Source: a virus. From it: a stretch of DNA of 12,256 nt. Position numbers and translations under genes: made by a program. Where the stretch lies: the IMG/VR virus record IMGVR_UViG_3300024262_005036. One strand, 5' to 3'. The notes below the pieces were generated by a model that saw only the letters and a list, made by a program, of their open reading frames with translations, had not been told where the DNA came from and searched no databases. Below, one piece after another: positions 11,440 to 12,256 of this stretch; the stretch's first letter is position 1, and the number at the start of each line of letters is the position of its first letter.

Positions 11440-12156
11440 TCCTAACTGGGACTATACTCTTTAACACTTCACGAAGATAACACTTCAAGAGTGTAATGTT
11501 CTTTAAAATTATGAAGAAGAAACTTTGAAGATATAACTCACTAAGTTTTGTTAAACCAAAACAAAAAGTGTAAGACATCCTCAACACATTTTTCACTTCT
11601 CACGTAGGAGTGTTTCCGTGAACGGGATGTCGCTTTTTAAAAGTTTTTGAGAGTTAAGCCAAAGTAATCTGGACAATCATTTATTGGTAAATGTTGAAAA
11701 AAGAATACTCACAGCAACTCAAAAGAAACAATTGGATGTTAACTTTATGTATTCTGTTTTAACATTTTTTATTGCCAAGATGTTCTCGGACTAACTCTTC
11801 GGAGTAGCAATAAAATACTTAGTGAAAATTCTTCAAGAAACTAAAAATCAAGTGTGGCTGAATAATGGATCGCCAGTCCATAAGGCACTCTATCAATTGC
11901 TGAAAAGTAGTTGGTCGTGGTTTAACAAGCACTTCCACATAAATCCTAAAAAAGCCAGGGTTGGACAACCTTGAGCCTCGTAAGGTCGGGACAAATCGTT
12001 TGACATTCATATGATGGCTGTATCCCGTTGAAGGTAATCATTCCTTCCTATTGCTGAGACAGAAAGCGCAATCTGTTGAGATAGTTGATGAATAATGTGT
12101 AGCGAGTGTTCTAGAATTGTGAGTAATCATTACTCTCACCACAAGATTTTTTTAAA
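11440..12156 (+). ncRNA. candidate structured ncRNA of unknown family: ORF-free, locally GC-enriched and hairpin-rich
   Basis: No plus-strand ORF exceeds 23 aa here. GC in 60-nt bins is 40-47% across 11880-12060, against about 28% in the flanking CDS. Visible hairpins include ACACT-TCAAGA-GTGT, CCG-TGAA-CGG, CTC-TTCG-GAG (a UUCG-type loop), GGTTG-GA-CAACC and GAGTAA-TCA-TTACTC. A TATACT box at 11451 is a possible -10. Orientation is inferred from the plus-strand terminators. Confidence 0.35.
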
Positions 12157-12189
12157 CCCTGATAGTTGTGAAACTATCAGGGTTTTTTT
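12157..12189 (+). terminator. strong rho-independent terminator. A weaker hairpin+T-run lies just upstream at 12121-12153.
   Basis: CCCTGATAGTT (12157-12167) pairs with AACTATCAGGG (12172-12182) around the loop GTGA, followed by T7. Upstream, GAGTAATCATTACTC is followed by ...GATTTTTTT. Confidence 0.75.
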
Positions 12190-12256
12190 ATGCTTTTTAT
12201 TTTTTATATTAAATATTATGCTTACTTTTGTTGAAAATATAAATTAAACATTAAAA

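Follow-up and report, generated by a model that had tools for sequence, protein, structure and literature searches.

A conserved phage RNA of 309 nucleotides that resembles manA and carries sequence evidence of self-association

The stretch of DNA considered here, referred to as the window, comprises the 12,256 nucleotides (nt) of the virus record IMGVR_UViG_3300024262_005036 in IMG/VR, and the element in question is a non-coding RNA (ncRNA) located at positions 11843-12151 of its plus strand (+). This segment is almost certainly a real structured RNA that belongs to a manA-like family carried by phages. What is new here is a conserved phage RNA that appears to be a larger variant of the manA kind and that holds sequence evidence of self-association. 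The explanation favoured below, with rather better than even confidence, is that of a stand-alone, manA-like ncRNA of about 309 nt that has its own terminator and whose copies would bind one another through two palindromic loops. The core idea of a first-pass annotation of the window, namely that the GC-rich part of an interval near the 3′-end is a structured ncRNA, has held up, as the RNA is conserved, of phage origin and matched by no Rfam family at threshold.

A sensitive blastn search of 11400-12256 against phages yields matches solely in the Prevotella Lak megaphages, over positions 11947-12050, and in Lak-A1 and Lak-B1 the matching stretch lies between two tRNAs of a tRNA array. When aligned by hand the Lak homology to the window spans about 300 nt, with compensatory changes visible. 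Further copies were recovered by pattern scans with the most conserved hairpin (in viral contigs, metagenomes and genomes) and with the 5′ module (in viral contigs); about 23 distinct sequences were left after the matches had been filtered, and one copy in the 735-kb phage LR756501 and L068 (L numbers denote loci) were added later. The family is carried by Lak megaphages of human and animal guts, by LR756501, and by about 20 more lineages from IMG/VR or metagenomes. Its other members share 50-66% identity with the window RNA, and two subfamilies can be recognized, A (including the window and Lak copies) and B. An 18-mer pattern of the P7 hairpin gave 66 matches in 185,579 representative bacterial and archaeal genomes, which is about the estimated chance level, and R1, a chimeric covariance model of the shared 5′ and 3′ parts, detected no family member among these 66. 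No match was obtained in the plasmid collection or for the whole window against phages in near mode, and no close relatives of the window phage were found in viral contigs by way of its 169- and 807-amino acid (aa) proteins.

The relatives so collected permit a covariation test. Alignment A2, which consists of 13 sequences (the window and 12 other lineages), was used for RNAalifold and for the covariation counts; of the 53 pairs that RNAalifold predicts, 40 show compensatory changes. Helix P1 was added to this structure for pair counting, giving 65 pairs in total, and over these 65 pairs and 13 sequences 88.7% of the cells hold standard pairs, versus 41-49% for slid controls. Changes on both sides are seen in 50 of the 65 pairs (21-33 in slid controls), the covariation score is 0.673 (0.11-0.19 in slid controls), and the observed covariation values were matched in none of 500 shuffles. 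The overall fold is a closed multi-helix structure in which P1 joins the 5′ and 3′ ends: the bases immediately preceding GUGnCUGAAUAA form pairs, in each lineage, with those that directly follow the last hairpin, and this fixes the ends of the RNA at window positions 11843 and 12151. The elements of the window RNA are the following.

11843-12151 (+): structured ncRNA gene, manA-like, subfamily A; alignable homology with 12 other lineages covers exactly this range.
11843-11854 (+): 5′ strand of P1, AAAAAUC-AA-GUG, which pairs with CAC-AA-GAUUUUU at 12140-12151 and closes the whole RNA.
11857-11886 (+): module 1, in which P2 pairs GCU (11857-59) with GGC (11884-86) and loop GAAUA (11860-64) lies opposite AA (11882-83).
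11865-70 with 11876-81 (+): P2a, the hairpin of module 1; the stem covaries and the module columns are invariant or nearly so.
11890-11917 (+): P3/P3b hairpin capped by CUGAAAAG, a GAAA tetraloop (11902-05) closed by U-A and C-G.
11937-11945 (+): 5′ side of module 2, with P4 ACAU (11937-40), AA, and P2′ AUC (11943-45); pairs with 12087-12098.
11954-11976 (+): P5 hairpin; its loop, UGGACA (11962-67), is the first of the two self-complementary positions; 7 of 8 pairs in the stem are changed on both sides.
11979-12027 (+): P6, pairing 11987-91 with 12023-27; all 5 pairs are changed on both sides.
11979-84, 11991-98 and 12011-22 (+): single-stranded blocks CGUAAG, ACAAAUCG and AUGAUGGCUGUA, conserved in subfamily A.
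12030-12047 (+): P7 hairpin GAAGG-UAAUCAUU-CCUUC, with a nearly invariant loop.
12048-12084 (+): P8, pairing 12048-52 with 12080-84 and enclosing P8b.
12058-12077 (+): P8b, GACAGA (12058-63) with UCUGUU (12072-77), loop AAGCGCAA (12064-71) including GCGC (12066-69), the second self-complementary loop position.
12087-12098 (+): 3′ side of module 2, with P2′ GAU (12087-89), GAAUA (12090-94), and P4 AUGU (12095-98).
12119-12139 (+): P9, the 3′ hairpin GUGAG-UAAUCAUUACU-CUCAC, preceded by UUG; 4 of 5 pairs are changed on both sides.

The sequence of P1 changes in each lineage while its complementarity is kept (AUUGGUG/CACCAAU, AAAGUAAUG/CAUUACUUU, GAGCCAC/GUGGCUC, AAAAAACG/CGUUUUUU); 10 of its 12 pairs are changed on both sides, and in LR756501 all 12 base pairs (bp) form. 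P3 is changed on both sides at each of its nine pairs, and the CUGAAAAG that caps it is invariant in 22 sequences. The GAAUA/AA internal-loop module (NNN-GAAUA-helix plus helix-AA-NNN) is present twice, once as a local element and once assembled from distant strands. In the second of these P4 is paired in 98% of cells, and P4 and P2′ form in all 15 subfamily A members with covariation (AUC/GAU, GGU/ACU, AGC/GCU, GGA/UCU, ACC/GGU). Module 1 was compared by eye with the k-turn and the 11-nt tetraloop receptor, and both candidates were rejected, as the sequences fit neither consensus. The P6 segment is the part that blastn matches in the Lak phages. The stem of P7 covaries across subfamilies (GAAGG, AAAGG, GGAGG, GUUGG, GCCGG, GUCGG, GCUGG), and both P7 and P9 combine covarying stems with near-invariant loops of the GUAAUCA type.

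The composition of the segment agrees with the GC rise that had been noted for 11880-12060: GC content is 42.5% over that range and 40.5% over 11843-12151, versus 27.3% for the window as a whole, and the GC-richest 309-nt stretch of the whole 12.3 kb sits on the RNA, about 2.9 standard deviations above the mean. No long open reading frame (ORF) was found in 11401-12200 with the standard code, and single-stop recoding of the same interval opened no convincing gene. Lak phages are known stop-codon recoders; recoding in the window was considered and rejected, since the window genes read through under the standard code and the interval gains nothing convincing. The statement that the interval holds no plus-strand ORF longer than 23 aa needs correction, as two plus-strand ORFs of 50 aa are present at 11822-11974 (GTG start) and 12095-12247 (ATG start), both of them unconserved. 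The first-pass annotation had also named, as the alternative to an RNA, a minus-strand ORF of 63 aa at 11819-12010, which would make the segment a decayed or genuine protein-coding fragment. Most homologues do possess minus-strand open frames of 48-98 codons, but these frames would stem from the many UAA/UGA triplets in conserved plus-strand motifs; the ORF itself is unconserved, being interrupted in every homologue by one to three indels relative to the window that are not multiples of three. With substitutions that are compensatory within helices, and with elements that sit between same-strand tRNAs at spacers of 0-5 nt, the probability left to a coding fragment is negligible.

The loops of P5 and P8b evolve in sequence and yet tend to stay self-complementary. 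The central tetramer of the P5 loop, which is flanked by U/C and A, is GGCC, GCGC, GUAC or GAUC in 22 of the 24 listed sequences, GCGU in one and GGAC in the window. GGCC is found in the Lak copies, L003, L123, L213, L224, L236, L267 and L068; GCGC in L072, L200, L208, L211, L215, L226 and L255; GUAC in L201, L202/L219, L205 and L259; GAUC in L216; and GCGU, which is self-complementary when G.U wobble is allowed, in L257. Within the sister pairs L205/L208 (95% identical) and L200/L201 (85%) a double central change, GCGC to GUAC, has occurred with the palindrome kept, and four of the six distinct P5 tetramers are palindromic (P = 2e-4). The P8b loops contain, depending on the lineage, UCAUGA, GUCGAC, UAAUUA, UAGCUA, UGAUCA, GAUC or GCGC. 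Among 13 distinct P8b loops scored, from which L202, L219 and L216 were excluded, a palindrome of at least 6 nt is present in 7 versus 1.0 expected (composition-preserving shuffles, 0 of 5000), and one of at least 4 nt in 11 versus 4.84 expected (P = 0.0006).

Self-pairing of such a loop is impossible inside a single molecule, and the most economical interpretation is therefore that each RNA can engage in two homotypic kissing contacts, which would be enough for closed or extended homo-oligomers. It thus seems fairly probable, judging from the loop sequences, that RNAs of this family self-assemble through the palindromic loops; for the window copy the chances appear evenly divided. A mechanistic analogue is offered by the dimerization initiation site (DIS) of HIV-1, a purine-flanked palindrome in a hairpin loop that reads GCGCGC or GUGCAC depending on the lineage, remains self-complementary and mediates homodimer contacts. 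Both systems have a short loop palindrome that varies by lineage yet stays self-complementary. They differ in that there is no homology between them, and in that each molecule of the phage RNA has two loops of this sort, whose palindromes measure 4-6 nt and whose contacts are predicted.

With regard to known RNA families, the window RNA is matched by the manA model (RF01745) with 19.9 bits and an E-value of 0.004 on a 341-nt stretch, and manA is the only Rfam family covering the element at E <= 10. The same model matches 9 of the 11 members tested (the window and 8 of 10 other loci) at 18.4-31.1 bits; in a 67.6-kb search of the ten other loci it is the sole non-tRNA family on the element, with E-values down to 3.7e-4. 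Outside the window, six of the eight manA matches span the RNA completely or almost so; the matches in L257 and L003 end before its 3′-end, and that in L001 is limited to the last ~90 nt. The correspondence at the two ends is detailed. Window positions 11852-11886 align column for column to the manA model (GUGnCUGAAUAA, hairpin, UAAGG, closed by 2-3 bp), the motif order of module 1 being that of the manA consensus GUGaCUGAAUAA-hairpin-UAAgG, and positions 12116-12151 align to the manA element UUG-stem-GUAnnCAnnAnUC-stem-C. The "pseudoknot" of the manA model, wherein 3′ bases pair with the 5′-end, aligns to P1, which covaries in all lineages; P9 aligns to the manA 3′ hairpin UUGugGGUAuacAguAAUCCcaCC and is close to the manA sequence UUGUGAGUAUGACAGAAUCUCACC of cyanophage S-CREM1; and the conserved blocks occur in the same order as in manA. 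R1 finds every family member, each split into two matches.

The bona fide manA of S-CREM1 (100.6 bits), which lies exactly between tRNA-Leu and tRNA-Asn, shares the pairing of the ends and the 5′ block, has a near-identical 3′ hairpin and differs in the middle. Likenesses between manA and the present family include carriage by phages, a position among tRNA genes (the family in arrays, S-CREM1 manA between tRNAs, the window copy being without a tRNA in 20.5 kb), the 5′ block GUGnCUGAAUAA-hairpin-UAAGG, the 3′ hairpin UUG-stem-GUA...C-stem-C, and a 5′-end that pairs after the 3′ hairpin. The differences are in size and in the centre. manA measures about 190-215 nt versus about 300 nt for the family RNA, and its central domain, in which a small hairpin sits within a long stem and a 7-bp hairpin comes next, is not found in the window RNA, the central helices P3-P8 of the family being different. 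The middle of the family RNA has the CUGAAAAG (GAAA) hairpin and a second, inverted GAAUA/AA module, together with CGUAAG, ACAAAUCG and UGAUGnCUGUA blocks and an extra GGUAAUCA hairpin. Cryo-electron microscopy (cryo-EM) revealed that manA RNAs assemble into decamers and a 60-mer cage by means of kissing loops (bioRxiv 10.64898/2026.07.01.735769). There the contacts are described as lying between differently numbered loops (L5-L7′ and L8-L9′), whereas the loops of the present family are homotypic and palindromic; the one true manA that was folded showed no palindromic loop. Taken on its sequence and predicted fold, the RNA is likely a distant, enlarged and distinct relative of manA that lies below the family threshold.

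ROOL and GOLLD, of which a member had been suspected here, are ncRNAs of phages and prophages that usually lie beside tRNA genes and are assembled by kissing loops; they are roughly two to three times larger than the window RNA and have unrelated consensus structures. Neither GOLLD (RF01998) nor ROOL (RF03087) matches 11300-12256 at E <= 10 or the window in gathering mode, and that suggestion has given way to manA as the only detectable relative. ROOL, GOLLD and OLE are reported to form homo-oligomeric complexes (PMC12286853); the likeness to such RNA-only assemblies would, for the window RNA, rest on an oligomer predicted from sequence. Rfam in gathering mode and ARAGORN returned nothing on the window, and neither Rfam (gathering or E-value mode) nor ARAGORN detected a tRNA, tmRNA, RNase P RNA, intron, OLE, HEARO or vault RNA. 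The earlier failure to recognize RNase P RNA, tmRNA or group I and II introns is in agreement with this, none being found at E <= 10, and the search against all Rfam families that had been advised leaves manA, below threshold, as the only recurrent match. No earlier description of the 309-nt family was found in the open-access literature.

The usual position of the RNA is inside a tRNA array, on the tRNA strand and often no more than 5 nt from the neighbouring tRNA. A tRNA or transfer-messenger RNA (tmRNA) follows within about 10 nt on the same strand in L200, L201, L215, L226, L257, L003, L123, L219 and L255; in seven of the nine loci a further tRNA is found at most 26 nt 5′, none being called 5′ of L003 and L219 in the stretch fetched. 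With a tRNA or tmRNA 0-10 nt 3′, and usually another no more than 26 nt 5′, the enzymes that release the tRNAs would release the RNA as well. Five lineages, the window copy and LR756501 among them, have stand-alone copies that finish in a terminator or a U-run. The window itself derives from a 70-kb metagenome contig (ENA ERZ27249621 k141_1281268), of which 20.5 kb around the RNA were covered in the search for tRNAs.

The RNA would probably act as a stable trans-acting particle instead of an mRNA leader. Its ends would be made in arrays by the tRNA-processing enzymes that cut the flanking tRNAs, and the 3′-end of the window copy would be made by termination. Copies would bind one another through the two palindromic loops in two-fold kissing contacts of the HIV-1 DIS type, and the outcome would be a homo-oligomer of defined size, like those that manA, ROOL and GOLLD display in cryo-EM. 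An alternative is that the RNA acts as a monomer in tRNA biology, either as a scaffold or punctuation of the array or as a mimic or decoy for host enzymes that target tRNA, the palindromic loops being incidental or serving intramolecular or protein contacts. The strong linkage to same-strand tRNA arrays at spacings of 0-5 nt, sometimes beside a tmRNA, would be expected on such a view, and genes for an RNA ligase and an OB-fold protein lie 5′ in the window. It leaves without explanation, however, two loops that change in sequence and stay self-complementary, and several members, the window copy included, have no tRNA nearby; we regard it as unlikely, though as the most serious competitor to self-association.

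Several phages that carry the RNA also have a tmRNA on the RNA strand (L255 5025-5402, L257 8389-8792, L211 6424-6936 and L010 10180-10608). In L255 the tmRNA and the RNA are directly contiguous; the gap is 94 nt in L257 and about 200 nt in L211, and in L010 about 3.6 kb separate the tmRNA from a larger related RNA. In Lak-A1 (L001, MK250015), where the family RNA occupies 2898-3202, an insert of ~125 nt in the anticodon loop separates the halves of a tRNA-Thr(UGU) at ~2694-2880 and contains a tRNA-like element, tRNA-His(atg) according to ARAGORN. The tRNA-Thr at the corresponding place in Lak-B1 (L002 2811-2884) is uninterrupted.

Three features flank the RNA in the window.

11574-11640 (+): branched hairpin (to 11631) followed by GCUUUUU, terminator-like in the scan; -22.2 kcal/mol, z-score -2.9; outside the RNA.
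11829-11840 (+): TTCTTCAAGAAA motif just 5′ of P1.
12154-12192 (+): intrinsic terminator from the terminator scan, with a 14-bp stem, a GUGA loop and then U7; -21 kcal/mol, z-score -6.7.

The terminator hairpin itself spans 12154-12185, directly 3′ of the RNA, and the stand-alone members L213, L259, L267 and L202 likewise finish in a terminator or U-run. Of the tandem terminators that had been described, the second is thus the very strong one at 12154-12192, while the first is part of the RNA, namely P9 (12119-12139) with the 3′ strand of P1 (12140-12151). The next called gene begins ~415 nt past the terminator. About 70 nt past it lies a small uncalled ORF with a hydrophobic product, MNLTLLIIMTITITFGLILIITFFLGYNF... 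(L011 11370-11495, window 12260 onward).

A terminator in this position could also belong to a cis-regulatory leader or riboswitch that acts on a downstream gene, and the manA motif was first proposed to be cis-regulatory (Weinberg et al. 2010, PMC2864571). Yet the stem of the terminator is self-contained, with no evident alternative pairing with the RNA, most members have tRNAs or a tmRNA and not mRNAs on both sides, and the true manA of S-CREM1 is also placed between tRNAs. A leader or riboswitch role is made improbable by the array setting, by a terminator that stands on its own and by the ~415 nt before the next called gene, to a degree well beyond that of the monomer.

Upstream of the RNA the branched hairpin at 11574-11640, which begins 175 nt after the last coding sequence, is probably the terminator of a string of genes, MVP-p258-p169 (MVP, major vault protein). 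The promoter of the RNA presumably lies in 11640-11842, which is unstructured (z-score near 0). The UUCG-type stem-loop that had been reported is present at 11792-11803. A TATACT box on the 5′ side is likewise present, at 11453-11458; as a promoter of the RNA it fares less well, the promoter scan having missed it and the terminator-like hairpin lying between it and the RNA. Motifs resembling (G)TTCTTTGAAA occur 2-10 nt 5′ of P1 in L255, L267, L219, L211, L216 and L257, and also 5′ of the L006 and L010 RNAs; they recur even where a tRNA sits just before them, and may represent a promoter element or a processing site.

The segment had been drawn as a single feature of ~750 nt. The structured RNA unit is 309 nt, 11843-12151 on the plus strand, as conservation and covariation are confined to that range. 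For 11401-11842 no homologues were found by phage blastn or in the plasmid collection, and there were only chance-level matches among the fetched family loci. The upstream 442 nt do fold better than shuffled sequence (z-score -4.2), which might speak for one large ornate RNA of the GOLLD or ROOL type over the whole of 11440-12190, as might L006 and L010, whose non-coding stretches of ~900 nt share blocks with the 309-nt RNA. The upstream folding signal is, however, mostly due to the branched hairpin, homology and covariation end at P1 (11843 and 12151), and GOLLD and ROOL are unmatched at E <= 10; a single large RNA therefore has very little to commend it. The stretches in question (L006 ~1190-2170, plus strand; L010 ~6560-5800, minus strand) are GC-richer, lie beside tRNAs, and have in common with the 309-nt family a GAAGGUAAUCAAUCCUUC hairpin, several other blocks and a 3′-end that weakly resembles manA. 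No Rfam family matches them above threshold, and they may represent a relative of even greater size.

The case for a manA-like RNA that associates with itself has to be weighed against a number of observations that count against it. The manA gathering threshold of 55.2 bits is reached by no family member (the window scoring 19.9), and none of 13 loci passes in gathering mode. In aligning the window to manA, cmscan leaves out stretches of 56, 40 and 84 nt and flags the pairs of the centre as non-canonical, and R1, applied to the bona fide manA of S-CREM1, scores 9.2 bits (E 4.9; 5′ and 3′ parts only). Because R1 is non-significant on a true manA and the central domains differ, the relationship to manA is probable and not proven. 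There is no tRNA in the 20.5 kb around the window copy, and the promoter scan of the interval identified no promoter for the RNA. As to the loops, the P5 tetramer of the window, GGAC, is an imperfect palindrome; self-pairing of GGAC would be possible solely via a tandem G.A mismatch. Subfamily A has its P5 palindrome at the apex of a perfect inverted repeat, and the signal could come partly from stem extension there; this does not explain subfamily B, where the palindrome is in a 13-nt loop. In P8b no palindrome is found in L236, the minimum-energy folds of L202, L219 and L216 give a short GACG loop without one, and in L068 the longest palindrome within the loop is 2 nt, a 6-nt GCUAGC straddling the stem.

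manA has long been an orphan "riboswitch candidate", for which the 2026 preprint describes RNA-only decamers and a 60-subunit cage. The window indicates a larger, distinct branch of manA-type RNA for which Rfam 15 has no model at threshold. Two loops that evolve and yet remain palindromic would constitute sequence-encoded evidence for self-association, and the family provides structural biologists with concrete new targets for cryo-EM. Its placement between tRNAs also speaks for manA-type RNAs being processed and free-standing, as opposed to leaders of mRNAs, a status that narrows the search for their function in phage infection.

The window RNA lies 1.7 kb 3′ of, and on the same strand as, the gene for an 807-aa protein (7686-10109, +) whose homology to MVP is clear (Pfam MVP_shoulder 98.5 bits, Vault_3 34.5 bits), and it had been speculated that the RNA is the partner of this protein, as a counterpart of the eukaryotic vault RNA. 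Relatives of the protein in the phage collection are found only in LR756500 and LR756501/LR756503 (52-53% identity), and LR756501, one of just two other MVP-encoding phage genomes found, also has the RNA. The two are about 145 kb apart there if the genome is circular, so that adjacency is unconserved; in LR756500, which has the MVP gene, no RNA is detectable, the Lak phages, which have the RNA, gave no MVP match, and no MVP gene occurs within ~5 kb of the RNA in other family loci, the RNA being mostly in tRNA arrays. The terminator-like hairpin lies between the MVP operon and the RNA. What is shared with eukaryotic vault RNA is that a small ncRNA is present in a genome also encoding an MVP homologue; the Rfam vault RNA model gives no match to the RNA region, and there is no similarity in sequence or structure. 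A vault partnership is accordingly very improbable. Equally slim are the prospects that, in phages that encode MVP, a self-pairing RNA forms the nucleic-acid part of a vault-like particle, either packaged or as a scaffold; were it so, the particle would correspond, among viruses of prokaryotes, to the eukaryotic vault ribonucleoprotein, with an RNA predicted to oligomerise at its core.

Further 5′ of the MVP gene, at window 4340-6350 (+), are genes for a PHA02142 OB-fold protein, a GIY-YIG/NUMOD3 endonuclease and an RNA ligase, a string that looks like an RNA-repair module.

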